Below are positions 8,155-49,200 of a DNA stretch of 64,000 nucleotides, one piece after another (position 1 is the stretch's first letter; each line of letters opens with the position of its first letter). The position numbers were made by a program, and so were the translations under genes. This stretch comes from Callorhinchus milii. Lineage: Eukaryota. The stretch covers positions 130,636,001-130,700,000 of the forward strand of contig NW_024704742.1 in the NCBI RefSeq assembly GCF_018977255.1, in the 5' to 3' direction. The notes under the pieces were generated by a model. The model saw only the letters and a program-made list of their open reading frames with translations. It was not told the DNA's origin and did no database searches.

Positions 8155-8460
8155 GTGGAGTCCTGTAGCTCAGTGGTTAGAGGACTCGCCTTGCAAGCAA
8201 GAGACCTGGGTTCATTTCCCAGCAGGGCGAAACCTTGGGCAAGTTTCCTGACTCCACACACCTGATAATAATCCCTCAAGAAAAAAAACCAATAATAAAT
8301 TGGTCACTTCAATCCACGACTGTTTGTGGGATATTGCTGTGTGCTGCCACATTTCGCCCACTAATATACAGGCGATTCACTTTACAGTCTATTCGGTGAA
8401 GCGCTTTGAGACGTCTAGAAGACGTGACAAGTGCTATATCAAATGCAAGGATTATTAGTA
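8155..8460 (+). mobile_element. Full SINE inserted in an older SINE tail (8131-8154 and 8461-8545)
   Basis: Head gtggagtcctgtagctcagtggttagag; the interrupted tail resumes at 8461. Confidence 0.85.
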
Positions 8461-19200: not shown

Positions 19201-22200
19201 AAAGAATGAAACTGGGATTTTCCTGGTTTGTGTGCCTCATTTTCACGTTGGAAAGTTACTTTATTAACTGAGCCAAATTGTAGCGATAGATTAGAAAAAT
19301 CCTTGATGGGCAGAATCAATTATGAATCACAATGAGCTCAGCACACATCATGTATATCAATAATGAGAAGAACAGATATTTTCAGGGCTCAAAGCAAAAT
19401 TGGGAGTGAGTGTTTCTCGGTTTTAAAAGGTTTTTGTTGGTTTCTAAAATCATTGTGAAATCCTGCATGAGCAATCCCAATGCCTAGCTAGGCTTTGTAA
19501 AAAGTTTCAACAATAAAATTACATTTATAAAGCGCCTTTCACGTCAGGAGGACATCCCAAGGTGCTGGACAGACAGCGTTACGGACCCAAGCTGGGGGTG
19601 GGGGCGAGTGGAGGGCAGGGGGGGGAAGCAGGGAGATTGAAAGCACGATCAAAGAGGAGGGTCTTGAAATGGGTCTTGAAGTTGGTGAGGGAGGAGGTGA
19701 GGTGGAGGGACTGTGGGATGGAGTTCCAAAGGGTGGGGGCAGAGTGGCGGAAGGCCCGCCCGCCAATAGTGAGGCGAGCAGGGCAGGGCACGTGAAGCAG
19801 GCCGGAGCCTGCTGAGCGGAGGGAGCGAACAGGATGGGGGGAGCAAGACTTTGAAGGTGAGGACCATTTTCTTGAACTGTATCCTCTGTGTGATGGGAAG
19901 CCAGCGGAGTTGGGCAAGGATGGGGGTGATAGGGTCGCGGAGTCTAGTGCGGGAGAGGACATGGGCTGCAGAGTTCTGGATGATCTGCAGCCTGGGGAGA
20001 GAGGAATTGGGGAGGCCGACAAGCAGTGAGTTTCCATAGTCGAGCCTCGATGTAATGAAAGCATGTATTAGGGTTTTGGCGGCCTGTGGTGTGAGACAGT
20101 GGCAGAGCTGGGTGACGTTGCGGGGGTGGGGGAAGGCAGAGAGGATCAGCCCTGTGCTGTAATAGACAATTAATATTTAATTAGCTCAGTGGTGGGCAAC
20201 ATGTGGCCCGTGGGCCAGAAGTGGTCCCCAGGGCAGTGGAGAAGCCTCTCCTCCCCCACCGAACATTTGCACGAGTAAGTGGGTCTGTGTTTGTTTGATC
20301 ATTAGTGTGTTTTCAGTTCACTTGATTGAGATTCATGGCTGACCATCAAGATTGGCCACCACTGATTTATGTTGGGAGGACATCTCAAAGCACCAGATGA
20401 TAGCTTGGGCACCACATTTCTTAAAACAAATACAATTTTTACTGTTTCTTTAGGCCACAGCTGAACAGATCCGTCTAGCCCAAATGATTTATGATAAGAA
20501 TGATACAGATTTTGAAGACAAGGTCAAACAAGTGAGTAAAACTTTTGGGGATATTTGCTATTTTCTAAAGCATAGTTTTTTTTACCTCTTGTTGAAACGT
20601 GAGTTTTTTTAAGACTATCGATTGTCCAGTGTTTTTTCAGTAGCTTAAACCTGTTTTGTTTTTACTTTTCTGTCTAGCTGATGGAAGTTACAGGAAAGAA
20701 CCAGGATGAAAGCATAGTGGCACTTCACGACTGCAATGGTGATGTGAACAGAGCCATCAATGTACTTCTAGAAGGAAACTCAGACACGGTATGGAACAAA
20801 GCATTTTGGTCTTTCAAAGCAGGTTAGGGTTGGGGGAATTTTTGCTTTTAAGGTCTTCTCAGTAAGAGGATGCTTTTTTTAAGCAGTAATGTGATTCTTA
20901 CCCTATAGGACTGATAAAATAATAACTTAATATGAGCATGTTACCATCATGCAATGTTTCCATTTCCTGGTTAAAAACTATAGCCATCACGTGTATTTAT
21001 CACTTTATCACCCTCCTTCGCCCCTACTTCGCACCAAATGTCTCTGAAACCGTCATGCATGATTTTGGCGACTTCTGCCTTGACTACTCAAATGCACTCC
21101 TTCCTGGTCTCACCAATTCCACCATCCACAAGGTCCACCTCATCCAAATTGCCATTGCCTACATCCTCACCTGCACCAAATGCACGCAGGCTCCATTGGC
21201 TCACTGTCGCTGAACAGATCAACTGTACGGTCCTAATCCTTGCATACCATTCCCCTCGCATCTTAGTACCTCCTTATCTCTGATCCGGTCTCTGATCATA
21301 GCCCACTCCTCTGCTTACCACCTACACTTAGCTGACATAGGCCTCCTGCACATCCATGCTACTGTTGGTGGCCAAGCCTTCAGTCATTACACCTCCCAAC
21401 CTCTGGAACTCTCTGCCTCGCCCTTTCTATCTTCAAATCCCAGTTTAAAACCTACCATGCAACTCTGCACCGTGAAGCGCTCTGAGACATTATCCTACAT
21501 GAAGGATGCTGCATAAACGCACGTTGTTGATCTGTTCAGTGTAACTACTTCTTTTGACACCTGGCACAAAATGGTTGGCAGATTACAGGAACTAATCTAG
21601 TGTTTTACGCAGACCTCCTGGGAGACTGTGGGCAAGAAGAAAAATCTTGGAACAGGGAAAGACAGCCTCTTGGAAAATAAGGAAAATCGAGAGAAGCGTG
21701 GTGATCGAGAAGCAAGCCGAGGTCGAGGCAGCTCCTCTAGGCGAGGGAAAGGGAATCGTGGCAAGGAATGTAAGTCGTCCTGTAGGAGGCCTGTTGCTCA
21801 GTGGTAAGAGCACTCAAGTGAGAGACCTGGGTTTGATTCCCAGCAGGGTAAAGCCTTGGCCAAGTTTCCTTACTCTCCATCCCTGACAATAATCCCTCAA
21901 GAAAAAGAAACAATAATAATTTGGTCACTCAATCCATGACTGTTTGTGGGCAATTGGCTGCCGCATTTCGCCCACCAAAATATACAGTCAATTCACTTTA
22001 CAGTATATTCTGTGAAGCACTTTGAGACGTCTAGAAGACATGAAAAGTGCGACATCAAATGCAAGGATTATTATATAAGTAAACAATTAGATATTTTTAA
22101 TACTAAGCTATTTTGTTCACTGAACTTTTCAACTTACCCAATGCAGCTGCCAAATACATTTGAGTAAACGTGTAGTGTCTAAGTCAATTTCTATATTTTA

Positions 22201-25200
22201 ATATGGAAGTGCCCAAGTTGAAAGCCTGATCTGGTTGAGTTTGCCAGTGTTGGCTGGTAGAGTGATGCCAATGGGTATAATTGGCTACAGCATCCCCTGA
22301 GATATGGTGGAAAAAAATCAGTTAGTTTCCACACCTGATATCCACCAGTGGCATCGCCTTCTTTCTTTTTTACACCTCTTTTAGCCCCCACTTCCCCAAA
22401 CCCCTGGTAAGTTTGTTCATGTGGATATCTGGCATGGATTTAGATTTGATTGTGTTACCCATTACAGTTGAATGGCTTGTGCACACTAACTGTTAAAGGT
22501 GTTCACGAAAGCCATCCATCCGTGTAAGGTGATTGTGAGCCACTAGCCTCTTTGGGTCTGTACCACACTGTTCCATGCCGTGGGGAGTGGAGTGGAGGTG
22601 GTTAGTGGCAAAAAATCATTTACTATTTTTTAATTGCAGTCCGGGCTGAGGAAAATGGAGTGGATGTTGGTCCAGGTGATCGACTTTTGGAACGAGGGAG
22701 ACGTGGACGAGGCAGAGGTGAGACTGGGAAGATCACAAGCAAAATGCTTATTTATTTTGCTGCAATGTTTTTGTATTTTGTATTTTTAAAATAGTCTATT
22801 TTTACAATAGTCATTTGTGAAAATGTAAATGCATTGAAAGATGATTTTCTCATGTTCTGAATTTATCATTATTCATTTGCATTGAACGCAATATGAAAAC
22901 TCGTGGGTGGAGTCTTGTGTAGGTTCATAACCAGGGGATGTTGAGTTTTGGAGAATTTAGATTTTTTTAAAAATAAGTAGCCATTTTAATATCTATTCCT
23001 GATTTATGCCTGTTTGGAGGGAGCAGAAAATGTAATTTACAACAACTTTCATTTATAGAGCTCCCTTCTCGTATGATAGTTTCACGAGCTGCTATATAGA
23101 GAAACCAAGCTGGGGAGGGGGAGATGACCATAGGCAGGGTCAACGAGGTAATTTAGTACTGTAGTTCATTAATTTGAAGCATCTCACACAAGGCTTGTAT
23201 AATTATGAACATTCTCATACCCTTTCCAAAAAGCCCAAATGTGTTTCCAATAGAATTTCCAATAGTAGATTTATAAAATGACCCTCCCAAGGCCCCTTAA
23301 TCGCAAATTTCGCTGCTATTCCTTAAAGTTGGCCAAATTCTGTTTGTCTAGTTGGGAATAATTGAAAGTCAATCAGAATGTCTGCTTTCAATTCACTTCA
23401 GCTTGTGCCTGTTATGGAGGCAAATTGCTTATTGTCTTTGTGTGCACCACCATTTGAGACATGAAGGTGAGTTTAGAGACTAGGTTAAGGTGAATGGGTG
23501 GACAGCCTGGGGAAGGGGATTGCTGAAGCTCTTGACAACAATAAATTCAATTATCTTTGTCGTCCAAAATCGAGCGGGAAGAGACCAGTTGAGTATTTAT
23601 TCTGAATTCTCTTGGATCTATCAGCGGATGTGCTGAATGAAAGAGAGAGCTATGGAGTAGAGTACAAAACGTCGTAAGCTGATGGTGTTTATTTCTAATT
23701 TTTGGAAGAGTACATTTTTGGGGTTATACCAAGATGAGTTTGAGTTTCTTCCCATTCTTGACTTTAGAAGCCTTTTCTGGGGAAGAGTAATGGAGACAAC
23801 AACAACTTACATTTGTCTCCCACCTTTCACCTCTGGAGGAGATCCCAAAGACGTGAGTGTAGGCGACAACTTACACTTATATAGCGTCCTCCACCCAGGG
23901 TAGCTGCTCAGAGAGCTTAACATTTATTTTTCCCATTTGCGCCTTGGGATGTCCTCCTGACGTGAAAGGCACAATACAAATGTAATCTTGTTGTTGTTAA
24001 CAATGGTACCATCCTGGTAAATCTCCTTTGCATCCTCTCCAATGCCTTGACATCCTTCCTAAAGTGTGGTGCCCAGAACTGAACACAGTCTCTCGCTGAG
24101 GCCTAACCAGTGGTTTATAAAGGTTCATCATAACTTCCTGACTTTTGTATTCTATGCCCCTATTTATAAAGCCTAGTATGCTTTTTTAAACAGCCTTATC
24201 TATCTGTCCAGCCACCTTCAAAGATTTACTTATATGAACCCCCAGGTCTCTCTGTTCTTCTCCCCCTTTAAGACTGTACCATCAGCTTATATTGCCTCTC
24301 CGCATTCTTCCTCCCAAAATGCATCACTTTGCATTTCTCCACATTAAACTTCATCTGCCACCTGTCCGCCCATTTCACCAGTCTGTGTCCATTTGCAGTG
24401 CTACTATCCTCCTCATTGTTTACGACTTTCCTAGCTTAATATCATCTGCAAACTTGGAAATTGTACTCCCTATACCCAAGTCCAGGTCATTTATATAGAT
24501 CCAAAACATTAGTGGTTTGAATACTGACCCGGAGGTCACCACTACACACTGTCTCCCAGCCAGTTCTGTATCCATGCTGCCACTGTCCTTGTGGAGTTCT
24601 GTAGCTCAGTGGTTAGAGCACTCGCTTTGTAAGTGAGAGACCAGAGTTCAATTCTAGGCAGAGGGCGAAACCTTGGGCAAGTTTCCTTACTCCACACAGA
24701 GCCTAATAATAATCCCTCCAAAAAACAAAACAATAAAAAATTGGTCATTTTCAATCCATGACTGTTTGTGGGACATTGCTGTGCGCAATTGGCTGCCGCG
24801 TTCGCCCACAAATATACAGTCAATTCACTTTACAGTATATTCTGTGAAGCGCTTTGGGACGTCTAGAAGACGTCAAAAGCGCTATATCAAATGCAAGGAT
24901 TATTATTATTAATACCATGGGCTTCCATTTTGCTTACAATCCTCTTATGTGGCACTTTAACAAACGCCTTTTGAAATTCCATATGAACTACATCAACTGC
25001 ACTACCTTCATCCACCCTCTCTGTTACTTCATCAAAAAACTCTTATCAAGTTTGTTAGACATGATTTGCCTTTAACAAATCTGTGTTGCCTGACCTTTAT
25101 TATCCCATGTTTTTCAAAAAAGCTTATTTTGTCCCGGATTATAGTCTCAAGAAGTTTCCCCACTTTTGACGTTAGGCTGAATGGCCTGTAGTTCCCGGGT

Positions 25201-28200: not shown

Positions 28201-31200
28201 ATAGCATAGTGGGACCTCGAAAGTGGAAGCACCTGGGTTTGATTCCCAGAGGGTAATTATCCCTCAAAAAATTAATACAATATATTCTGAAGCGCTTTGT
28301 GATAAGGCGCTACATCAAATGCAAGGATTATTATGTTTAAATATAAAAATGCCTAACATTACACACTTTCAAAATATTGCAGGCCTTGGTGGGCGGAGCC
28401 GAGGAAGAGGAGGAGGAAGATTTTCAGCACAAGGCATGGGGTAAGCATCTAAATGAGACTCTAATTTGAATTGTGTAGCTTAGGTAGCGAGGTTAGGTAC
28501 GTAGGTCGGTGCATTGGGATAAACTGCTGATCAATTGGCTTGTTAAAGATTTTTCAGTTGAATATTCAATTTACTGTGCTGCGTTAAAATTCTAATTCTA
28601 GGAGAGGAAAGGAATCTTGCCTTTTTCTATATGAATCAACACTGGTTTAATTTAATTGTGTGGGAAAAGATGATTGTGTCCTTATGCTTTTTGTTAAGAT
28701 AAAAGGTATCTGCTAACTTGCTAAAAGGAGATGACTTCAGGACTAATTATTGTAAAGTACTTGCCTTCCCATTTTCCCCCATCCTAGTTTATTTTAGGAA
28801 GAAAAATTCCTCAAGTTTATTTTATGCAGGAACAAATGAGACTTTCAGGGACAACATCCCAAAGTGGCTCATGCCCTACTGCAGATTGGGTTAAAGGAAA
28901 AACCACTCAAGTGGGCTTGATGGGTTAAATGGCTTCTTATGCTGTAACTTAAGGTGGATAAACTGGAAAATGTTAGCACCAGCTCAGTATAGTATGGCGG
29001 TAACCAAACAATTACTTTCTTGCATTGAGCGCCTTTGGGTTAACTGGACTACTTTCAAATAGTGTGGTCATTACTGCATGGAGTTCTGGTTAGCACATGA
29101 TCCACGCTGGGAAATCTTTGGAGTTGTGCCAGCACAAACTGAACCCTGAAAGGCTAGATCTCCACTTGTGGGGGAGGGGAGGAAGGAAATAAGACCTTAA
29201 TTAGTTTTGTCCTGAAAGTACTCAGTGATTTATTCTCCCCTTAAACATTTTAGCTTGGTTGGCACACTGCCGGTTTTAAACCCTGGTGCAATTTTGTAAC
29301 CGAGTCAGTATAAAGTGACAGCGCTTCAGAAGATTTGGGTTGTTTAACCTAATATAGTTTTAGGTTATTGCAACATTTTTATGACTGTTTCATAGAGTTG
29401 AAGTCTTCTGATCATTCCAGTTAGGGCTGTGTTCATCTTATAGTATTGTGGAATTACATCACTTTCAAAAATAAGATAACTTTCCCACACTAACTAAAAA
29501 TAAAGATTATGCCCATGAACTAGAAAAGAAAGTTTGTGCTTGTGAAGTATATATGGTCCTGACATGAAATTTGCTGCACATTTAGTGAATCTTTCCCCAT
29601 TCGGAAGTTTGTGATAATAAACTTGAGCAAGCCTGCCTGTGTCACAGGGAAGAAAACACATTTGTTTTGCACATTGCCAATAATGAAAAATTGGGCCTAA
29701 CAAAATGTGTAGCTAAGCACATTTTTAAACATAGGAGACTCATATCATATTTGCAGCGTATTCAACTCGGCATCAGAGTTGCAGCATGGATCATCTGACT
29801 TTTTGTAAAAAAATTAAATAATGTATGATATGCGAATAGTGAATCATTCTGAACTGGCAAGATTCTTAAACTGCAGTTGGAGCTAGCCGGAGAGCAAAGT
29901 TTTGGTCTCCTCCCTCCACCCCCCCCCCCACCCCCGAATGCATTCTACCACTTAACTTCAAAGTCTACTCTGAATGCAAGAGCGGTTTAGATATCAAGCC
30001 TATTGTTGTTTCAATGTGGCGTCAAGCCTTTTCAAGTTTGCTGGAATAAAGTTCCCTTTTATTTGTTGATTGCTTTAGATAAAATACTTGATGTCTGTCT
30101 TAAGCTTATCCTTCAAATTAAAAATATGTACTCTTTGTCCTGCTGTATTGAAATAATGTATTGTTCCAGGGTTTATTTTTTTGTTAAGTACCTTTATGAT
30201 CCCTTTGAGATGTCTCTTTTCAAGGTAGAAAAATCCTACCTTGTGGTAATGTTTCTTAACATATCCCTCTAAAACTGTGGATCAGCCAAATTGCACAAAG
30301 ATTCATGCACATCTTTACTACTTTTTTTAGTCAGTTAGGGGTTGAGATGTGTAGAAACTTCCTGGAGGGCCTCGCTGTGCTTACCTAATTCTGGAGAGTG
30401 TTAGGTGTAGGTTGGCGAAAGCCCCTTATGGCTTTGAGACCCCAGAGGGTGCTTGGGTCCTGCTGGCGTATAACATTTTTTTTAAAAAAAATGCATAGTT
30501 TGCCATTGAGAGTACTGTGGCTGAATCCCTGTCCCTAATGACTGGTTACCCTCCAAGTCCTGCCAAACAGCCAGTCTGTTCTGTCATCAGCAGTGCCTTG
30601 GAGTATTTGCTGCCTGGTTCAGCAACCAGATTACCGAGATCTCCACAAGGGTAGACTCAATCCCAGCCTTTCTTTGCTGAGCGCATAACTTGGAGCCATT
30701 TTGGCCACAAGGAACCCTTTTTGCTTTCTCTTTCTCACCCTCCCTCGCCAAAAAAGTATTAATGTTGTATATTTGCAGAGACTATATTGAATTAAATTGA
30801 ATTTGTGAGAATTGCTGCTCTTTATCACTATGCAAATATGTTTTTAGTATTGAAAATTCATTAAAACTAAATGTTTCAGTCTGTCGTGGAACACTTCAAT
30901 TTGCATCATTCCTTAAATACCTTTTGAATTCACTTAGTGTATCTCAACTGTACAGAACCTTCAACCCAGCAGACTACACAGATTCTACAACAAATGATGG
31001 TTATGGGACAAAGTCTGAAATGTGGGAGTCTGGTCAAAATGACTGTGATGGAACTGGTAGGAAAATATTAACTGAAAAAATTTATGCTTCTCAAAATTTG
31101 CAACATTTCACCCCAGTCATTTCTATTAATTTTATATCTTTGTGTGCTTATTTGTGTTTTCTAGGTGCCTGGAAGAATTCAATGGAAGATTGGGTAGCTG

Positions 31201-34200
31201 AAGACTGGAGTGAAGATGTAAGCATTTAATTTTATATAGTCTATTAATCAATTTCTGTACGACAAATTGTATGAGAATGCTGCAGGTACTTCTGAAAGAA
31301 GCACTGAACTAACTATAAAACTCATAATACCATAATTATCAAACTTGATTGAGCAGATCTACAATTGTCGAGTGTTATAGACTAACTAATATAGTGCATT
31401 AAGAGTAGTGCAAATTCAATTTGAATTTGGAACTTTAGTACCTTGTCTTCGCTTTCAAATCCCTTCCCTCGTCTCACCCTACCTTTGCATCCTCTTAAAA
31501 CAGTTACTGCCTCAGCTGCTCCCTCAGCAAAAAGCAGTCTGCTTCATGTTCCGCTGTAACTCCATCCTTGCCCCCTCCTTCCCTACTTTAAAAACTTGCC
31601 TCCTTTGGCCACCTGTTTCCCTTCTCTTTACCCCCCCCCACCAGCCTTGTGAATATCATAGATGCCTTCCCAATGTGATAGGTACTGTGTAAATTGTTTT
31701 GTTGCAGCTGACACAGAAGTATCAAATATTTGTTTAATCTTTTGTTCAACTTTTAAGTTGAATTCCTCTGTAACTGATGGTATACCATAAAGAGCATCAT
31801 TTTGCTTTTGTAATTTTTTTTAAAAAATTGTTCCAAGTACCCAACAGAGTTTTATTAAATACCTGGACAAAAACTTTTAAGTTCTCAGGGAGGTGGAAGT
31901 TAAATCCTGCAGAGAGACTAGGACGAGACAGTAAATGCAGTTCTGTTGAGAAATGTACTTGTTACTAGATCTGTAACAGCAGCTGCACTTGTCTTGTGAT
32001 CTTATGATGGCCTCAGTGTAATCCATATAGGGGGAGAAACATTCCCTCCAATCTACCCTCAGTTTATTGTATTAAATCATGTAACCCAAACAGCAAGGAC
32101 AATGGAGAACTTTCTTGGGGGGTGGCGGGTGGTAGAGAAAAGGCAAAGATTAAACTAACTTGCGTTCTAACAACATTTTGTATTCTGGACGTGTTCTCAC
32201 CTCCCCTAAGCTTGATTTTAAATCTGACTCCTGCACTCATAGTGATGTTAAGGAATGTTTGTGGTTTGATTTTATTTCCCTCTCTGTTGCAAGATTGAGC
32301 AGTACTCAGCAACTTTTGTGACTGAAAAATTGCCTTTGCCTGGAGAGGGACTGGGCAAGGTTCACTGAAATATTGAATTGTTTGAGTAAGAATGACAGCT
32401 CTAGTATCTTGCAGCACAGAAGCCTTCTGGAGAGATTGCATTACAACATCCTTTTTGGTTAATTGGAGAGTTGAAATCTGCAGACAATGCCCACAAGGGT
32501 TCTCGTAGCTTATTTGTCCCAATTGAATTCTGTAGGTGATACTCCTGACGTATATCCTGGCATCTAGTAACTGCAAAAGTGGCATAAATAGACACTCCTA
32601 ATATCAGGACTAATGGAATGTCTGGGGAAGAGGAAGCTGTAACTTAAGCAATGCAGCACATCAATGTTCTATTTATACTGCACATATGGCAGCGCTGCTT
32701 CAAACAGACGTGGCTCTGCAATAACAGAGCTGCCGGTGCAGTGGGCTCTCCCCACATACAGTGGTTGGGGAGTCCACAACAATAGGTGGTGCAATTTCTG
32801 AAGTCTGAATTTGCCTCATTTCTGAACACAAACGTATTACCCTTTTGAAGGGTACGATCCTTATCACAACTTGTTTTTATAAAAAGCCTTTCATTGTAAA
32901 GGGACACCTCAAAGCACTTGAATAGGCCACCAATAGGAAAACTGCCTCGGTGCCTTAATCAGATGAGAGTTCAGCCAGCTACAGGAAATTATGTTGATCG
33001 CTGCTGGAAATTTAAGGGGCCTCATTTAGCTTGCTGCTTTGAGACCAGGAAGAAAGTTTTTGGGCACGATTCCTTGTCCCTTCCCAGCTTTAAATCCTGC
33101 CTTAAGACATTTCTTTTGAACCGAGCTTTCAATTTTTACACTAAGCAACGGGTAAAAATTGTCTAACTTCAGGGTCATCAGTTTGCTGCTGATTTCAATT
33201 TTTGCGCGCATGTGTGTGTGAGTGTGTATGGTTTGTGCATCAGCCTGGCTCAGTTGGAAGCACACTCGCCTCTTGAGTCAGAAGGTTGGTGCCTGGAACT
33301 CATAGTCTAAGATGACATTCAAATGCAGTGCTCGGGGGTTGCTGCATTGATGGAAGTGCAGTCCTTTAGATGCAGCATTAAACTAAGGACATTGAAGATC
33401 CCACATCACAATTCAAAAAGAGAAAGGAGAAGAGTTTCTCCCGGTGTTCTGGCCAACAATCCTCTCTTTCCCACTCTCCCCACCCCCACCTCCCCAACAA
33501 AATTGATTATTAATTTCATGGCTATTTTGAGGCATTGCTGTGAGTAAATTGGCTGCCGTGTTTGTGTACAAATACAGTTACTATATTTTACAGTAAAGAT
33601 CCAGTGTTCAATAATCCTAGGGTGCCTTTGCTCTTATAGCAAAGATATTGCATGCAAATAATGCATTGGTGTGTTGATAAGAAGTGATTGTTGCTGGCTT
33701 AGTCATCTTAAACTGTTATGCTATTGGTTAGATATCACATTGACAAAATGAAGACGTGCATAACAATCGTTGAATTTAATTTTTTAAGCAGCTGACGGAA
33801 ACCAAGGTCTTCACTGCCTCCACTATTGGAGGAATGGACAACCGTATCACTGCAGGGCAAAGGTATGACCTGAGCTATATTCAACATCCTATTTCTGATC
33901 TTGGTAGCTAATAATTACGTATAATGTATGGATTTCAAAAAGGTATAAGGCGTTGTCTTTCTTTTTTAGAAAAACTAGATCCAGATTTTTCAGGTGTATT
34001 CTATTATTAAATTAGGTTGACTGTTGTTGATGTGACTAATAGTGTAAAGAGGAAAGTTTCCAAATTAACCATCAACTTTTGAAGAAGGAATTCTGGTGTT
34101 TGAAACAAACCCCAATATTCCTTTATCAGTTCAATTGGTTATATACATTTCTCTTGTCAAAAACATGTTTGTTGAGGAAATTATTTAAGTTACAAATTAT

Positions 34201-37200: not shown

Positions 37201-40200
37201 GAGCTTCAGTTTTTCCGCTTCTAGATTGAAGGCTTCCAAATCCCCTCTATTTATTCCTGATTTGATAGAAACAGCCTGCGCATAGAGGTCATTGTATCAG
37301 GATATTTTCATCTGGAGAAGTTTGTCTCACTGTCTCCAGGAAATTTATGTAAATTGGCCATCTGGTTATCTGCAATCTCTACAGACACAGCAGCTCTGAC
37401 TGTTTGCTTGCTTTTGTTGTTTGAGGTTCTGAGAAAGAAGGAAGAGTTAGAAAACATGTCAAATGATTTTGTTTGTACGTTAGGTGATTAGTAAATAAAG
37501 ATCGGATTGTGTGATCATTTAACATCTGTGACAATGTATAACAGCATCCATTTTGAAAGCTATTTCCGAATCCCTGCCATCGGCAAGCTTAGTTATCTTT
37601 TACGTAACGGTCTTCAGTGGTCCAGTTAAGAGTGTGAATAAGTTTGTTGAAACTTTGGTGCATCTTCAATGGAGCTAATGTTTGTATTCTCAAGAAATGT
37701 TTGAGCAATCATCTTTACAGTATAAATATCTTAAGATTTCAGCTTGTAAAAGCCTTCTGTTTGAAAATATTCCTCTATGCAATCCAGTATCACAACAGTA
37801 CACTTGTTTCAGCTTTTCTACTGGATACTCTAGCTTTTCATTTTCCCCCTCCAACCCAATGGGCTTGACCTCTTCATTGGGTTTGTGTGCATTTGACCCA
37901 ATCGAAAGCAGCCTAAAATTTTGGTACTCTTATTCCATACCCATTTGTCTCCCCCGTTTTCTAAACCCAGCCTTTGGTGAAATGTTTAGCTGAACAAAAC
38001 GATCGTTGACCCTTTGGCTGCTACTGATTTGCAGGATATTTATACTTCTTTTGGTGGGGGGGCAGTGGAGGCAGATGTTGAAGAAATTTTTTTCAAATTT
38101 CTCTGTGGTACACATGTCAAATCCAAGTGCATTTGGAATACCATTTTGGGGAGAAACAAAATTTCTAGTGACTTGCTAGTATGCGCATTTTTGGATTACT
38201 GTGCATTTTCTCAGCTGTTAATAATTAGCATCTGATTTTTTTTGTATGGGGCAACCACATTAAACACCCTGTTAGAGTGTGAGTTCGCTTACAACATTGT
38301 CTCTTGTGGATCCGCAGTTGCCATTTCCTGCTCCCAGAGCAGACTGGCTGGCATTCTGTGTACTCCATATATAATCGGGAATCCTATAGCTCAGTGGCTA
38401 GAGCACTCGCCTCGCAAGTGAGAGACCTGGGTGCGATTCCCAGCAGGGCGAAACTTTGGGCAAGTTTCCTTACTCCACACACCTGATAATAATCCCTCTA
38501 GAGAAAAAAACAATAATAAGAATGGTCACATCAATCCACGACTTTGTGGGACACTGCTGTGCGTAATTGGCTACTGCGTTTCGCCCACAAATCTACAGTC
38601 AATTCACTTTACAGTATATTCTGTGAAGCGCTTTGCGACGTCTAGAAGACATGAAAAGCACTATATCAAATGCAAGGATTACTATTACAATCCCTTTGCC
38701 TTGCTCCCTCCCTTGCCTTATTTAAGGCATGTCTCAAGAACCTTCTCTTTGACCATGCCTTCAGTCACCCACTTGCCGACACAGTCGATCACGCCGTCCC
38801 CCTCCACCGCCTTTCCTCCGTCATCCACCTCAGTGGGACCGCACTCGCCTGGTTCGAGTCGTACCTCACAAACCGCCAGCAGTACATCTGCACAAACGGC
38901 TTCTCCACCTGCTCTCACCTGGTTACCTGCTGGGTACCCCAAGGATCCAACCTTGGCCCCCTCCTCTTTCTGATCTACATGTTCCCTCTTGGGGATGTCA
39001 TCCACAGACATTTCCACATGTACGCGGACGACATCCAACTCTCACCTCCTCCACCTACTCGACCTCCCCCTAAAACTCTCCAAACCTGTACGCAACCTAG
39101 GTGTCCAGTTCGACCCCCAATTATCCTTCCTCCCCCACATCCGGTCCCTCACCAGCATCACCTTCTTGCACCTCCGACGCATTGCCCGTCTCCGCCAATA
39201 CCATACCTCTCTCCGAAAGCCTTTGAAACCCTAGCCCATGCCTTTGTCACCTCTCGGCTGGACTATTCTTAACGCCCTCCTCGCCGGCCTGCACTCCACT
39301 ACCATTCATATAATCCAGATTATTCAAAACTCTGCCGCCCGCATTGTCACCCGCTCCCTGATCACCCCAGTCCTTGCCAGACTGCACTGGCTGCCTGTTC
39401 CAGAGAAGATCGACTTCAAGGTCCTCACCCTTGTATTCAAATCCCTCCATTCCTCTGCACCCCCCACCTCTCTGACCTCTCTCCTCAAAACAGTACCCGT
39501 TGCCTTTGTTCCTCCGGTCTGGCCTCCCCCGAGTCCTGCGCTCCACCCTCGGCGGCCTTGCCTTCAGCCACTATGCCCCCAGGCTCTGGAATTCCCTTCC
39601 TCACTCCCATCAGCTCGCCTCCTCTCTTCCTATTTTCAGGTCTCTGAAGACCTTTCTTTTCAACCGTGCCTTTGGTGACCTTCCTCCCCCTCTGCCTGGC
39701 TCGGCCCCGGGACCCGTTACTGTGAAGCGCTCTGAGACGCCATCCGGCATCGAGGGCGCTATATAAATCCAAGTTGTTGTTGCCCCCAACCCTCCCTGCC
39801 CTCCAACCCTCCTGATCCTTGGTATGTTTTCCTGACATGAAAGGTGCTATACAAATGTATTCTGATGGTTTGATGGTTCCACACGTATGCAGGCAGCCAG
39901 CCAGTCTGCATCAGAAGCTGGAGGTAACATCAGAGACAGCCTAACAACCAGGAAGCTGGCCCGTTATTCAGATTATTATAGAACAAAGTCTAATTTTATG
40001 GACTCAAAATACCGCGCTATAATGCAGTTGCCCTATACAAACAGGTGCTTTTAGCCAGTAAAAGGGCAGTGCTGATAACACGTAGTAGGACCTAGAAAGT
40101 TTGTTTCTCAGCAATAGCTGAACTAGTGACCTGTATTGGTGTAAAATCTTAAGTAATTCAATGTGCTATGTTTATTTTGGGCATCTTTGTTCTATAATGC

Positions 40201-43200
40201 GATTTGTGCAAATTCCCATGAAGAGCAAAGTGTTTACTTATCTTATCTGTTCTACATTGATGCATTGAAGTAAATGTGCAACGTTGCGGGAGAAACTGGT
40301 TAAGAACTGTTTTAGTAGAACATCTATTATGTGAATATTAGATGTTCCATGACAAAATATTTTCATAAATAAAACTTGAGCTGTAATGTGTGCATGTAGA
40401 GTGATTGCAATGGAAAATCAGTATTTCAGGTTTACTGTTAAGTATCTTTGAATAGGATAGTCGAGTCTTCAGTGCTTTGATTTGGCTTTCCAGTTTTGAA
40501 ATCTTACATGTTTTCTATATTTTTGCAGTCGTCTGTACTTGGTTCTGGGTTTGGAGAACTTGGAACTACAAAGATGGCCAACTCTTCAGGGTCCCAATTA
40601 CTGGAGCAGTTGAAGTCCTCTGGTTTGGTGCCGCTTGCTGCCCAGAACAATCAACAAAGTAACACTCCTGCCTGGGAAACTAAGTCAACTTTACAGTCAA
40701 CTGTTCTAAGCCAGTTTGGTCAGTATCAGTAAAATTACTTGACGCTACCCGACGTGAAGGGCACTATATAAATGCAAGTTGTTGTATTATTCACGTGTTG
40801 ATCGTGGTCCGTAAAATATATGTTATAATTGCACCGGAATAACCCACTTCTATATTAATATGCCCCCATTTTTTAAACAAAATCGGATTCTAGTGCAAGG
40901 TAGAACATCCCTTTTCACATTAACTCTTTGAATTCAATAATAATAAGAATCTTTGCATTTGATACAGCACTCTATCATTACCTAAAATGCCAAGTATAGT
41001 CTTAGCAAAACCAAAATGTTATTCCTCAAATGTGGTCACAGTTTGCTGAAGGGTGGTGTTGACGAAGCTGTTCAGACCATAGTAATATGATTGGTTATTG
41101 CTGGAAAAACACTCTTATTTGTAAGGGAAGTAAACTTGTAGATTTTTTCAAATTGTATAAACTACTTCAAAAATGGTTTCAACTTAATTCAAATGACTCT
41201 TAAGGATCAGTGTTGTGTACTAGGCGGATATGAATTGTGTGCCATGAGCTACAGGGTGGGAAAGAAGTTACCAAACCGAATTAAATTGGGGAGTGAGAGA
41301 CACAAATGAAGATGAAGTGGAAAGGCGGTAATAATAGTACTAGCATTTGTTATGGCACCTTGTCACATTGTTGAGGAGTCTCAAAGTGCTTCACAGAATA
41401 TATCATAAAGTAGATTGACTTTGTATTTGAGGGCAAATAAATCTTTGAACAAAATTTTCAGATTTTCGCTCAAACCAAATGTTGTTATTCATTTCGATTC
41501 CCAGGGCGGTGTAAAACCTTAGACACATTTCCTTACTCCACACGCCTCAGTTTACCTCACAGTAAATTGGAACCCCGTTGTTAGTCGATTGGTGAATCGC
41601 TTTCTGGGGATAATAATCCCTCCCTAAAAATAATGATTTGGTCACTCAATCCACAACTATTTATGAGACACTGCTGCGCGCTATTGCTGTGCTTTGCCCA
41701 CAAAATACAGTCACTACACTTTACAATATTATGTGAGACGTCTCAACTACGCGATAAGGCACTATATCAAATGCAAGCATTATTATTTCTTCCCCGTTCC
41801 TAAAAAAAGTTTCATATATTTTCCCAATCTGCAGACTTCAAGACACAGCCTGAACCATCGCCTGTGCTGAGCCAACTGACCCAGAGACAGCAGCAGGCCT
41901 CTGTGCAGCCAGTGTTGGATTCCTTCTCCTCCCAAATCAAACTGCAAGACCCTTCTCCTGTTGAGAGCACTGTTACTAAAATGATTCAGCAGCCACCGGT
42001 CTCTGCAGACAATCAGATGGCCAATGTCCAACAATCACAGCAAAAACAAGTGAAACCCCAAAAACGGAAGATACCTCCATCTTCTAAAGTAAGTTGTGTT
42101 TTACTTAATGTTTGATTTTACCTGGATTCTTACAGAATTTTATCATAATTTTTAGACAGTTTTTCCAGATGTAATGAATGAGTTTAAATGATGGGCCAGC
42201 TGATTGCTGTGATGCACCACAGGGCAGAAGAGCAATGTTTTGGTTCACATGATGAGCTAATGATCAGGGGTGCAGAGAAGTGGCTTGTTACTCTGTTGGT
42301 TGGGAAATTTGATTCATCTTATCAGCTGCTTCTGCACAGATTATCTGCCTGGCTGGCTCAAGCTTTATTGGTTAAGGCTTGGGAGGGAGTCAGTAAAACC
42401 TGTCCACTCTTGGCCGGAGGAAAACAAGGCCTTCCACATACGGAGGATATCCAAAGTCTCTGGACAGTCAAGTACTTGCACCCATGCTCCAGGCTGCAGT
42501 CGAGGGGTTTAGAGGGTGAGATGGGTGGAGGAGGTGGGAAGATGACCGAAGACGTGGTCGAAGAGGAAGGTCTTAAGACGGGCCTTGGAGGAGGCAAGGC
42601 GGAGGGACTCTGGGATTGAGTTCCAGAGGAACTGTTTAGGACAGAGTAACCAGCGAAAATTGCTTTGGACAGGGGGACCAATGAGAAGAATTGCAGAATT
42701 AAAAGATGACAAAAGTAATGGTTGCTCCTAAAGCACTGTCTGGCTTGCTTAGAATACAGGCTGTCTACCCAGAGTGTATTGTAACTTGCAAAAGCCTGCC
42801 AATGTGATTTTAAATAGAGCTCAAACTGGCATTTGATCACTGTTGAGTATCCAGGAAACAATGATGTTTAATTCAAGCACATATCTGAACACTTTTATGT
42901 GGATAGTCCCATTGGCTGAGTTTCCTGGATAAATTGCAAAACCATTCAAATTGTCTTGTTGAATGATGTATTTTTATCTCTGCCGAGGTTACTTTGACAG
43001 TTTTCACCACAAATTCTTCATAGATTTCAATTTCCCTTTCAGATCCCTGCATCTGCTGTTGAAATGCCCGGATCAGCGGATGTCTCGGGATTGAATGTCC
43101 AATTTGGAGCCTTGGAATTTGGCTCTGAGCCTTCGCTGCCTGACTTTGGAACCGGAGGCAAAGAGACGATCAGCCAGACGCAAAACCATTTGTTCTCAAA

Positions 43201-46200
43201 CTCTGTGAGGCGAGTACCCAAATCAACAAGCTTTTTGTGCCAGAGTGGGAACCCTAAAGCATTATTGTTTCAATAATTTCCCATGTGTTACATAATACAT
43301 GAGTTTGTACCTGTAATTCTCGCATAAGTTCCTGATCTCCACTTTATTCTCAATGGATTGTGAATTAGATGCATTTGAGCACTATTGAGTATACAGGAAA
43401 CGATGATGTTTAAATTCACCCACATATCTGAACACCTTTGTGTGGACAGTCCATTTTCTGAGTTTCTTGATAAATTGCAAAACCATTCAAAGAGGGGGAA
43501 AGTGAAAGCACCATCCTCGTCCAGCTCTTTCCAGATCTCAGCAGCGTAACCCAGTGCCTCACGTTCCAGCAGCCAACCATTGACAGTTGATGTCAGTTTA
43601 CAGGAGGTGTTTTGCACCTGTCAGTAGTGCTCAAATATTCAGGGAGAAGTGTACCACTTCCCTATAGATTTCCAGCAATTGGGAAGCTGGTAATCAATCT
43701 CAGCCTAGCATGCCAGGTGCCCTGTGACAGCCTGGTTAGCAAGATTAACAAGTTACTGCCATCTAGCAACCACCCAATGGGGAGGAATTCCCTAAGGCTG
43801 GAGCACAGAGTGGTTGAACCCAACCAATAACAAGCAGATTATGTGAACCCAAGCATGCTCTGTTACCGTCACAAGCTGCCCAAGTCTTTTACCCTGCGTG
43901 TTGCCTCACAAGAATCTGCGTCTCAGCCTTTTCAATCTCCCTCATAGTAGCACTGAATTGTTTGAGATAGTTCAAAAACTGGAATGAGTTGTGCAGATGC
44001 TTTTCAAAATGGGTTATGTTCGTAAATTCGTTTGAACTCAGCATATTTCCTCTTTCTCTCCGCCCCTCCCCCCCAGCCCAGAATCCCGAGCAACTTCTCA
44101 ACTGGTGTCCCATGTGTGCAGAGGACCAGTTATTAATAGTAGCTTGGTTCGGAGGTGTTACTTCCTACATTGCGAAGGCTTCTCGGGGCCAGGTCTCAGT
44201 TGGAGTAAAGAGGCTCCTCTGTTCTAAGTTGAGAGAAAACTCTTGATGAGAAGAACTGCTTCGAGCTACACAGACTCTCCAGGGACTGATATTTATGGCT
44301 GGAAACAGCAATTGCTGGAACTTAAAGAATGATTCACTTAAAGAAACGGGTTCTCCATCCTACTGTCAAATTCACCAGGATGATTCCACGGAACTTAATG
44401 TGTAGCCTGTTAATGCTAATATCTTCTAGTTGTACATTAGCGCTGTTTTAAAGGCGTCAGAAAAGTGCAGTTTGAATGGGAAAATAACACTGCTCTGCAC
44501 CCCAACTGTTAATGAGGACACATTGTGGATTTTACTCTAAAATTGAGCATCTTTGCACAACACAAATTTTGTTCGGCATGTACTTTCATGAAATATGTCC
44601 TTCATTTCTCTCCCACACACACAATTGTTTTGTTTTGAATTATTTAATTGAGGGAGAATTGCTTGGAAATCATACCCTCTAAGGTTCTTGTTTCTGGTCA
44701 GGAAAATCTGTCGTGTAGAACAACTGAATAATGGAATAGAAAATATTGTTGGAGCAAAAAGAAAATCTAAAGCATGTTTTGTTTAATGTAGATTGTCACT
44801 TTAGTACAAATGTTTCTTATTCCCAGGGGCTTGGGGTTCAATTCTACTGCAGATAGTTGGCTGTTAAAGGTATCCAGTATAGTTTGGGAAAATTCATGCA
44901 TTTGCATTTTATATTTGATTATCACGTCGTTGAGATGTCTCAAAGCGATTCACAGAATATACTGTAAACTTAATTGACTGTAATGTTTTGTGGGCGAAAT
45001 GCTTAGAAATCTGTGCTTAGAAAACAAACGTGCCTAAGTTGTGATTACACCCAGAAGCATTCTTCTGTAAATTGGCTGAGTGAATTATTTGAAATCCATC
45101 TTTGTTTTTATCTGCAGTGACTCTTTGTCGCAGTCTTTATCAATATCCAATACAGTTCAAGAATCGACGCATTCTTCCTCTGTGATCAGCTCCTCCAGTT
45201 TGACAACTGCTCAGAGCACTGCTGTGACCCCAACATATGATCAGAATTCAGTGCATAGAATACCTTACCAGAACTCCTTGGTTACATCGCCTCAGAAGGA
45301 ACCACCTTTACAGGTGACTGTGAAAGTAAGCGCTTTAAACTTCAAACTGAGTTTGTCTTATTGGTCTTACAAGACCATTTCATTTATATACTGCGGTTCA
45401 TGTCGAGAGGGTATCTCACGCGCTTAGCAACCTTACTGGGGTCGGGGGGAATTGGTGTTTCGGAGGGACATAAGATAAACTGAAAGCACTGTCTGAGGCA
45501 GGCTTTGAAGTCGAGGCAGGCTTTGCAAGTGGGAGAAAGGAGGAATTCTGGAGGGAGTTCCAGGTAGTGGGGGCAGAACGGATGAAAAAACAGGAAGTAA
45601 AGGGGAAGTAAAGCTTTGTAAGTACAGACTTGGTTGGACTGATAGACAATTAAATTGGTCGAAAGATCTTTCATTTGTAGATTGACGATTGCTTAAAAAA
45701 TAGCAGATGTTTTCTTATGTCTTCATAATCCTAGACCCTCTTGGCAATCCACATGCAAGAACAGCTGCCATTTGGCAACCCACATCTTGAAGTCAGATTT
45801 GACAGGAATTGAGGTTCAGCCCCTATCTTTCACTGTGTCATTGCTGGAATTTTTAACATCAGACTTCCATAGATATCAGTGCCATGATATTCCATATGGA
45901 GGTTTCTGAGGTCATTTGGCTCTGGATTATTTGGAAGAAGGCAATAGAAGTGACCAGGGCTCTGTCTCTCTCCTTGTCCTCCTGAACTTCTCCGCCGCGT
46001 TCGACACAGTCGATCACGCCATCCTCCTCCACCGCCTTTCCTCCGTCATCCACCTCAGTGGGACCGAACTCGCCTGGTTCAAATCTAACCTCACAAACCG
46101 CCAGAAGTACATCTGCACAAACGGCTTTTCCTCCCGCTCTCACCCAGTCACCTGCAGGATACCCCAAGGATCCATCCTTGGCCCCCTTCTCTTTCTGATC

Positions 46201-49200
46201 TACATGCTCCCTCTTGGGGATGTCATCCGCAGACATGGGGTGCATTTCCACATGTATGCAGACGACACTCAACTCTATTTTTCCACCTCACTTTGCGACC
46301 CCCGTATCTCAGGAGCTGGATGAGTGCAAATTTCCTTCAGCTGAACGTTACCAAGACGGAAGCCATACTCTTTGACTCTCGTCAACGTCTAGAATCTCAC
46401 GGTTCTCACCTCCTCCACTTACCTGACCTCCCCCTAAAACTCTCCGAACCCATACGCAACTTAGGCGTCAGGTTCGACGCCCAATTATCCTTCCTCCCCC
46501 ACATCTGGTCCCTCACCAGCATCACTGTCTTACACCTCCAACACATCGCCCATCGCCCAATACCTCTCTCCGAAAGCCGCAGAAACCCTGGTCCATGTCT
46601 TTGTCACCTTTCGGCTGGACTATTCAAATGCCCTCCTCGCCGGCCTCCACTCCACTACCATCCATATAATCCAGATTATTCAAAACTCTGCCGCCCGCAT
46701 TCTCACCCGCACCACATTCTCACTCCGCTCCCTGGTCATCCCAATCCTTGCCAGACTGCACTGGTTGCCTGTTCCAGAGAGGATCGACTTCAAGATCCTC
46801 ACCCTTGTCTTCAAATCCCTCCACTCCTCTGCACCCCCCTACCTCTCTGACCTCTCTCCTCAAAACAATGCTCATTGTCTTCGTTCCTCCGGGTCTGGCT
46901 TCCTCCTTGTCCCCCGAGTCCTCCACTCCACCCTTGGTGGCCTTGCCTTCAGCGACTATGCCCTGAGGCTCTGGAATTCCCTTCCTCACTCCCTTCTCCT
47001 CGCCTCCTCTCTTCCCATTTTCAGGTCTCTGCTGAGGACCTTTCTTTTCGACCGCGTCTTTGGTGACCTTCCTCCCCATCCCCCTGGCTTGGTCCCGGGA
47101 TCCGTTACTGTGATGCGCTCTGAGACGCCGTCCGGCGTGGAGGGCGCTATATAAATCCACGTTGTTGTTGTACTGGAGTTTGTATACATTTGAACACAAG
47201 TAAACCAATTAATTCCAAATATTGGACCCTACTTTTAACTTGTGGCTGGTCATTTTGCTTTCCAGCTCTGCAGTATTTCCTTTATGTAACCATTTGCTAA
47301 ATATAAAATCCTCACAAATTGAATTAGTCTTTCTTGCAATTAGCGTGGGCAGGGTCTTTGACTGAAGCTGAAAACTAATTTGCCACTAAATTTATAGCTT
47401 AATTCTGAGGTCTGGGAAAATGAAATAAGTCATTGGAATAATTAAGCCGCCTTAATTGTTGGAAGAGAGCTGGGATCTTTAACCTGTGCGGTTTTAAATG
47501 TATATTTTGTTTTCAGAATGGCTACAATGGGCACAACAGGACACAACAGACTTTTGAAAGTAAGTAGATGTGTTCATCAAAAAACACATACTTTGATTGT
47601 GCCATGTAATTGAAATTCAAGCCGGGTAGATAAATTTATTGGGACACCGGAAGGAAGAAAAGATATCAAGAATTGTTGATGAACAAGCCCCTTCAGTCCA
47701 TTAGATCTCATCCTTCTAAAGTACTCTCCCTATAATCCTCCCATATCATCTGTTTCTTAAATATCTAATGTTTCGGCCTTTACTACCCTTCCTGGTAACC
47801 AATCCTGCCCTCTGTGTGAAGACAAGTTCTGGGGCTTATTTTAATATTGTCTTTCGAGGGCATCCACCATTTCTCCAAGGTTGAAGAGCTCTCAGTTATC
47901 TTACTGTGACTTACTGTAGTAACGAGAGTATAAATTTGAGGATTAGGATCAGAAGAAAAAAGGGAGAGATCAGCAATATGTTTAATTAGTGTTAGAAAAA
48001 TAATTGAGGGAAAAATCTTGCATGTTCTGGGGAGGGAATGTGATCTGAATAGATGGCTCCAGTGGAAGTTATCACCAGTCCAGGCACGTATGTATAACAT
48101 TGTGAAATGTTACCTTTTTTTCAGCTTCTACATGTCCACCAATAAAATCTGAGTCGCCACCTTTACCAAACGTGGCCTCATTGTCCAGTAGTGTGTCTGC
48201 TGCTTCCTCACTTCTGCCTTCAGTGTCCCAGCACTCTGCTGGCTTGTCCAGCTTGAATCAGACCAATGAATTGTCCAGCAGCGCTCTCTCACAACTCAGC
48301 AGGTACGTAACCAATGAAAGATGTACTAAATATTCAAAATTGTACCTCCTGTTCACTTTCCTTTTAGAGTATGCAGAACTCCTTGCACTGCTAAGTGGTG
48401 CAAGTTGAGCCAATCTACACAGCCTACTGTAGAATTCTGTCGCCTCTTGTTAAAATGGCAATAATGGCACAGTAAGCCAAAAGGTGACAAAACATGAATA
48501 ATTGCCACAATGACACAAATGATCAAGTATCCAGCCCAGCCTGTGGGCTAAAACTGGGGCTAAAACTTTTACCACTTATGCAGGAGTGGAGGAGTCATCC
48601 CGGGCTACCTTTGATCCTAACAGCTCACTTAATCACCATTATCAAAATCCTTGTTGCTTCATGTTGCTTGCTTGCTTCTCAGCCAGACTATGAAGCGACT
48701 TGAAGGCAATAATACTTACAAATGTATACAGATCTTGCATATGTGTTTGCCGTCAGTAAGGTTGTCCTTGTGCGATCAGATTTTCAGTCAGTATGGCACC
48801 ATATATGTTAACTAGGTTAAGCACAGTATTACAGTTTTAAAAGACTAGTTTTTCTTTGAGAAACACTTTAATTGGCAAAATTGAGCAAAACATCAGCATA
48901 TTTATTTTGTAAAAGATAATTATAGCAATTGAGTGCTTGCATTGGGGAGGGGAGTGTGACATATTTTCCTATTTGTTGATCAAATCCATGTAACCTTACA
49001 CTTTAAATAACAATGAAAGTTGCATTAGTCCTGTCAGAAAGGATATATTCTAATTAGACAATTTGTTTTGCTGGCAACATTGACTTCCTTGCCAATGCTG
49101 AAAGATTCAGCATTTACAACAAGAGTCCATGCAGCTAATAACTAATTAGTTTAAAGATAAATGTAGGGAAGACAAAGTCATAGTGAGCATAGAGGGAAAG

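Follow-up and report, generated by a model that had tools for sequence, protein, structure and literature searches.

We analysed a 64,000-nucleotide (nt) stretch of the Callorhinchus milii genome (contig NW_024704742.1, positions 130,636,001 to 130,700,000 of the forward strand), hereafter the window; all positions below are those of the window unless another sequence is named. The window contains two copies of SNORD121, a gene for a small nucleolar RNA (snoRNA) of the box C/D class, which lie 542 nt apart in adjacent introns of ubap2a and in sense orientation to this host gene. The second copy carries a two-base change in its guide. Judged from its sequence, copy 2 is probably a redundant paralog that is losing its guide function, a reading to which we give a probability of about 65%.

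Duplicated block and host gene

The initial annotation of the window, made from the sequence alone, had described a duplicated block on either side of coding exon 13 of a UBAP2 gene, with a SNORD121-like snoRNA in each block.

42829..42950, + strand: duplicated block 1, in ubap2a coding intron 12 (954 nt)
43043..43209, + strand: ubap2a coding exon 13, with the UBAP2-Lig motif PF12478 and a GC donor at its end
43371..43491, + strand: duplicated block 2, in ubap2a coding intron 13 (1908 nt, GC-AG)

The two blocks aligned at 88% identity (E=4e-37) with the annotated limits, and differed by 12 substitutions and 3 single-base indels. Two of the substitutions fall in the 40 flanking bases and the other 10 within the snoRNA. 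The proposed local duplication was thus upheld; the flanking sequence said to be shared, however, extends for only ~20 nt on each side, and exon 13, between the blocks, lies outside the duplicated sequence. The exon 13 peptide was 100% identical to Callorhinchus milii ubap2a entries, which confirmed the host gene. Protein mapping makes 43043-43209 the 13th coding exon if the pieces at 30957 and 31167 are counted separately. A spliced contig from run X5 spans 43043-43209, its loose ends match exons 12 and 14, and it bears out both exon 13 junctions and the GC donor of intron 13. This donor, at 43210-43211, belongs to the host intron of copy 2. Within ubap2a, a difference between isoforms was also seen at 30957-31217, where P0007 reads in frame through the short intron 31059-31166 and P0005 splices it out; this is possibly intron retention or an annotation artefact.

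No third SNORD121 copy was found in the 991.5-Mb genome by DNA search and by search with the Rfam model RF01191 (best candidates scored), and the window holds no other Rfam snoRNA above cut-off. A metagenome scan for further SNORD121 genes returned 0.

Copy 1 and its 28S target

Both copies matched RF01191 over the full length of the model and reached its gathering cut-off of 44 bits (72.8 bits for copy 1, 44.4 bits for copy 2), in agreement with the family that had been proposed for them. Target searches were performed against 14 ribosomal RNA (rRNA) and small nuclear RNA (snRNA) sequences taken from the C. milii genome itself (12,979 nt; U11, U12, U4atac, U6atac, transfer RNAs (tRNAs) and 5S were not in the set). 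The genome has two types of ribosomal DNA (rDNA), A and B, which are 86.6% identical to each other in 28S and 91.5% in 18S. Statements made here on papers cited by PMC number refer to the accessible portions of each source. In zebrafish, guides have at least 9 pairs at +2..+10, and a mismatch is rarely tolerated, and then only at +2 (PMC7668251); from these guides, a strict target was defined as one with at least 9 pairs at +2..+10. The elements of copy 1 are as follows.

42849..42930, + strand: SNORD121 copy 1, canonical box C/D snoRNA gene (RF01191, 72.8 bits, E=1.8e-12)
42848..42859, + strand: 5' arm of the copy 1 terminal stem, 12 base pairs (bp) with 42920-42931, -17.4 kcal/mol, fold z=-3.2
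42861..42867, + strand: box C (AUGAUGU)
42873..42884, + strand: D' guide, target G3572 (equivalent of human G4607), 12-bp duplex with type-A 28S
42885..42888, + strand: box D' (CUGA), second base altered in run X15, not in X20
42897..42903, + strand: box C' (AUGUGGA)
42916..42919, + strand: box D (CUGA), with the 3' splice site 123 nt downstream

The D' guide of copy 1 reads TTCAAGCACATAT and is a perfect match to type A 28S. It has a single strong site, with 28S G3572 at +5, 12 bp and -15.1 kcal/mol; the next best site reached -6.3. The target assigned to copy 1 by the +5 rule in the initial annotation was thereby recovered. A T at -17 and a G at -14 from G3572 match the spacing of human U4590 and G4593. 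This guide was the sole one of the four (two D' and two D-box guides) to have a strict target. It is unchanged among the changes listed for X15 and X20, two runs from related organisms. C. milii varies between T and C at position 42904 (run X4), and copy 2 has C, as do both relative runs; some of the differences between the copies are therefore derived in copy 1. Copy 1 is an ordinary SNORD121, and its predicted activity is that of the family.

Guide and structure of copy 2

The corresponding elements of copy 2 are listed below.

43391..43471, + strand: SNORD121 copy 2, divergent paralog (RF01191, 44.4 bits, E=3.6e-5)
43394..43401, + strand: 5' arm of the copy 2 terminal stem, 8 bp with 43462-43469, one of them G-U, -8.2 kcal/mol, fold z=-1.0
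43403..43409, + strand: box C (AUGAUGU)
43416..43427, + strand: D' guide, AG>CC at 43419-43420 (+9/+8), duplex with the 28S site reduced to 7 bp
43428..43431, + strand: box D' (CUGA)
43440..43446, + strand: box C' (GUGUGGA)
43458..43461, + strand: box D (CUGA), with the 3' splice site 1656 nt downstream

The D' guide of copy 2 reads TTCACCCACATAT. Both guides and the AG->CC change in mid-guide agree with the initial annotation, as does the finding that two base pairs with 28S are lost: in both rDNA types, +8 and +9 are mismatched against the 28S G4607 site. Copy 2 retains 7 bp (+1..+7) on this site, at -5.6 kcal/mol versus -15.1 kcal/mol for copy 1, or -8.5 kcal/mol with a bulged extension. 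Copy 2 is a SNORD121 homolog by descent and, on the sequence of its guide, not a functional SNORD121 guide. It is very unlikely that copy 2 serves as a weak backup that still partly methylates 28S G3572 through the 7 pairs beside box D'. Positions +1..+7, the +5 pair included, do still match the ancestral site, and some weak antisense elements are functional when tested (PMC6984369); however, two adjacent mismatches inside the +2..+10 core leave the duplex, even with the bulge, far under the pairing rule.

Boxes C, D' and D are identical in the two copies, and C' differs at its first purine only. The terminal stem, said to be kept together with the boxes, is weaker in copy 2 (8 versus 12 bp). 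When flanks were included, the external stems had -23.5 in copy 1 and -11.8 in copy 2, and a self-hairpin between the guide and C' had -4.7 in copy 1 and was stronger in copy 2 (-8.1). SnoRNAs located far from the 3' splice site require extended stems (PMC4150776). The differences in stem, distance and hairpin would favour reduced output of copy 2, without excluding output. In run X5, which is only guessed to be RNA, copy 1 was uncovered and copy 2 evenly covered. The runs listed are contigs throughout, with none recorded as RNA, and contigs cannot reveal mature snoRNA.

The CC in copy 2 is most improbable as an assembly error or a private allele, or as a change that tracks a compensating change in 28S. 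Runs X4 and X5, which carry the same species label and come from two studies (2 of the 16 same-species runs were compared), cover 43419-43420; the other letters there number 2 and 1, respectively, and none is C>A or C>G. An assembly error or a CC private to the assembly was thus ruled out. The presence of a second divergent rDNA type with a different site had made compensation a real possibility. The type B 28S site, however, keeps the bases facing +8/+9 and differs elsewhere; copy 1 pairs there at -10.3 kcal/mol with two mismatches, and copy 2 at only -4.5 kcal/mol. Compensation was ruled out in both rDNA types. Of the outcomes that the initial annotation had named as fatal to its claim, three were not encountered: a private CC, a compensated one, and the absence of a match to the Rfam model from both copies.

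Candidate targets of copy 2

The D' guide of copy 2 had no strict target in the 14 rRNA and snRNA sequences, and neither copy had one for its D-box guide. No perfect complement of the copy 2 guide was present in this set, so the perfectly matching target predicted earlier was not found there. A strict target was gained by 35/495 double mutants of the ancestral guide.

The best site for copy 2 is type-A 18S G1277, where +2 and +4..+12 are paired and +3 is a U-C mismatch. Its contiguous 9-bp helix (+4..+12) has -15.1 kcal/mol, versus -16.3 kcal/mol for copy 1 on 28S, and 9 of the 10 positions at +2..+11 form Watson-Crick pairs. Scored from +2, the site had -11.8, a value matched by 100/495 controls, or 65/495 when type-B rRNA was left out. 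The helix score was equalled in 46/495 double mutants and 51/300 shuffles; the helix and the 9/10 Watson-Crick pairs were equalled jointly in 23/495 double mutants (2/90 adjacent ones) and 28/300 shuffles. By criterion, the rates at which controls equalled G1277 ranged from 5% to 22% (further counts, 110/495 and 66/300). The match is suggestive, at about p 0.05-0.2 with criteria chosen after the match was seen, and is not significant. At the equivalent of G1277, type-B 18S has a second mismatch, at +4.

The four SNORD33-family RNAs of the genome target 18S U1285, which is human U1326. G1277 lies 8 nt upstream of this U and, by offset from it, is about human G1318. The four SNORD33-family snoRNAs occur in two pairs (L030/L031, G000:C10:14053372-14054023; L028/L029, G000:C159) and have the same D-box guide. 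The 18S sites of zebrafish include U1326, G1328 and G1322, the last without an assigned guide, and G1318 does not appear in the accessible site list of that source (PMC7668251). We also considered copy 2 as a guide for the unassigned G1322 of zebrafish (18S-A 1281); at only -4.2 kcal/mol, this candidate was ruled out.

It is unlikely that copy 2 is expressed as a lineage-specific guide that two adjacent transversions have shifted from 28S to the 18S cluster, creating a new methylation at type-A 18S G1277. Such retargeting would fit a helix close in energy to the canonical one, the small number of double mutants that reach both the helix score and the Watson-Crick pairing, the intact boxes of copy 2 and the position of G1277 within a methylation cluster, and target switches by point mutation are documented (PMC6984369). 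Nevertheless, the mismatch at +3 breaks the pairing rule derived from zebrafish, the null rates are high for scoring criteria picked after the fact, G1318 is missing from the zebrafish list, and the type-B 18S adds its own mismatch.

Copy 2 may alternatively be an expressed orphan, which would form a stable snoRNP (small nucleolar ribonucleoprotein) that binds RNA without modifying it, or act in cis on its GC-AG intron; we consider this improbable. Its candidate partners would be pre-18S 1276-1284, overlapping the SNORD33/32 site, or a messenger RNA (mRNA). The conservation of boxes and flanks, the overlap of the strong 9-bp helix with the SNORD33-family footprint around U1285, and the GC donor of the host intron are consistent with such a role, as is the depth of the intron-13 contig in X5 (7.6, versus 214 for the spliced exon, in a run only guessed to be RNA). 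However, helices of 9 bp and this strength often arise by chance, 12-mer mRNA targets are indistinguishable from chance in a 1-Gb genome, and both the expression and the binding are purely putative. The phrase of the initial annotation, an orphan snoRNA in the making, thus describes a possibility and not a finding; a redundant paralog in decay is at least as good a fit.

Age and relatives of copy 2

A single 736-nt contig of run X15, from a related organism, extends over 42909 to 43496. Because this contig spans copy 2, copy 2 is older than the split from this relative. Introns show 8-20% divergence between C. milii and this relative, which already has copy 2; in the faster segments the divergence amounts to 31/157 bases. 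The X15 sequence has an extra C behind 43465, where C. milii copy 2 lost a stem base. Beyond 43275, a stretch that takes in the copy 2 guide, a further 19 of its changes are known by kind only; two are C>A and one is C>G, and they are compatible with either AG or CC in the guide. The likelihood ratio of AG over CC in X15 was 0.7-0.9 with per-site rates, which over-predict the total, or 1.8-4.7 when conditioned on 19 changes. The loss of the copy 2 guide may be recent. For at least 2 of 10-13 random changes to fall in the 10-nt guide core, P=0.35-0.50.

Record 3 of X15, on 42909-42948, is a separate contig in which the 3' end of copy 1 is followed by different sequence; this hints weakly at a third SNORD121 copy in the X15 relative. 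When the flank of a possible third copy in the window was searched for, 2 matches were obtained, both at chance level. The D' box of copy 1 is changed in X15, at 42886. There are hints that different SNORD121 copies turn over in different lineages.

Two rDNA types

The two rDNA types are internally homogeneous in the assembly. Type A gave 5 matches on 5 contigs (C835, C1375, C1330, C877, C708; loci L005, L006, L011), and type B at least 12 matches on 7 contigs (C328, C248, C748, C1182, C1189, C218, C214; loci L007-L010, L032-L038), with a tandem arrangement at about 11 kb in C328. In type B the SNORD33 site is kept but the SNORD121 site has been lost. The parts of C328 examined had no repeat in common with the window, whereas C835 does share one. 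The identities between types A and B in C. milii are close to those between early and late rRNA of zebrafish (87.0% in 28S, 91.3% in 18S). Types A and B are possibly a maternal/somatic ribosome system outside teleosts, with a putative host origin for type B. Two rRNA types in another chimaera are reportedly the subject of phylogenetic papers, which our literature searches did not recover.

Other features of the window

Matches resembling tRNAs occur at 129-199, 8159-8230, 21787-21851, 24598-24662 and 38380-38451 and are probably the heads of tRNA-derived short interspersed elements. A longer repeat has two copies in the window, 38777-39782 and 46002-47170, with 87-94% identity.

Discussion

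The two SNORD121 copies of C. milii appear to have taken different courses. Copy 1 would be excised from ubap2a intron 12, assemble a box C/D snoRNP and direct fibrillarin to 2'-O-methylate type-A 28S G3572 (human Gm4607); this pairing was computed, and the biochemistry is presumed from the family. An old cis-duplication, which placed about 122 nt in the next intron before the split from the sequenced relative, would have given rise to copy 2, at first a redundant second guide. Its 28S duplex would then have been cut in this lineage by two neighbouring mismatches in the core, and its terminal stem, needed so far from the 3' splice site, would have eroded. Copy 2 is perhaps still made at a low level and most likely methylates nothing, and its partial 18S match would be a chance by-product of the C-rich run that it gained.

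Several observations favour this decay. Copy 1 alone has a strict target, and the 28S duplex of copy 2 has fallen to -5.6 from -15.1 kcal/mol; the Rfam score of copy 2 is 44.4 versus 72.8 bits. Its stem is weaker (-17.4 to -8.2; external, -23.5 to -11.8), with the 3' splice site 1656 nt away, and the hairpin between guide and C' is stronger (-4.7 to -8.1). Two or more random changes would readily fall in the guide core (P=0.35-0.50), and targets of the grade of G1277 arise in 46/495 double mutants and 51/300 shuffles. In a run of the relative, a C is inserted behind 43465, at the place of the stem base missing from copy 2. The modification also seems dispensable in zebrafish: the list of sites lacks G4607, and there are 0 occurrences of SNORD121 in supplement files 4 and 16, within the accessible part of that source (PMC7668251).

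Other observations weigh against loss of function. Of the nine possible double changes at +8/+9, CC is the best for a new target, which would also suit retargeting, and it is shared by two further same-species runs. An 8-bp stem is adequate for many snoRNAs. The 21 core box bases were hit by 0/10 internal substitutions (P=0.04), or by 0/13 events when indels were counted (P=0.015), both tests being post hoc. The flanks differ at 2/40 bases (P=0.009-0.38, by the rate used). The unhit boxes and similar flanks indicate that copy 2 was either long constrained or homogenised by conversion. We nonetheless retain redundant-paralog decay as the best explanation.

As a decaying spare, copy 2 would be nothing unusual in the birth and death of snoRNAs. 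SNORD121 is now added to the cartilaginous fishes, and zebrafish appears to be without it. If it were true that copy 2 methylates 18S G1277, this locus would offer a compact natural example of how two mutations give rise to a new rRNA modification; the ribose methylation would be confined to type-A rRNA and absent from the zebrafish and human-shared site lists consulted. The principle of a new modification by point mutation has already been published. More surprising than copy 2 is a second homogenised rDNA type without the SNORD121 site.

Our searches, which left most subscription journals outside, found neither this locus nor a pair of rDNA types described for C. milii, and no paper on mismatch position was found. 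SNORD121 and ubap2 occur 0 times in the accessible main text of PMC11880993, and the accessible portions of PMC4914119, PMC7235390 and a bioRxiv dual-ribosome preprint contain nothing on this locus. In human cells, Gm4607 is variable after Nopp140 knockdown (PMC8336889).

Both two UBAP2-hosted copies (human, chicken) and target switching by point mutation are already published. Cis-duplication is the usual route of snoRNA copying in vertebrates. In zebrafish, SNORD52/SNORD202 (host FP101887) are likewise intragenic copies with one degenerated antisense element, and their expression tracks terminal-stem stability (PMC7668251); unlike them, which keep a second working guide, the C. milii copies have D-box guides without a strict target. 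The Xenopus/human paralogs SNORD19/SNORD69, SNORA16, SNORA58 and SNORA28 show point-mutation target switches (PMC6984369). As in C. milii, one or two changes in the antisense element abolish or redirect guiding and the rest is conserved. Those switches are backed by modification mapping or activity tests, whereas the C. milii case consists of pairing predictions with a core mismatch. In chicken, GGgCD72 is SNORD121, with two copies in UBAP2 introns 13 and 15 (PMC2653536). As in C. milii, these are two copies in nearby UBAP2 introns, produced by the frequent cis-duplication route; guide divergence is unreported for chicken in the accessible text of that source. The human SNORD121A/B are UBAP2-hosted, 12-nt guides for 28S-Gm4607 (PMC1636440), and resemble the C. 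milii pair in host gene, in the presence of two intragenic copies, in the 12-nt 5' (D') antisense element and in the target. The human copies, however, lie about 18 kb apart and both serve the same site, whereas those of C. milii are 542 nt apart and one has lost its match.

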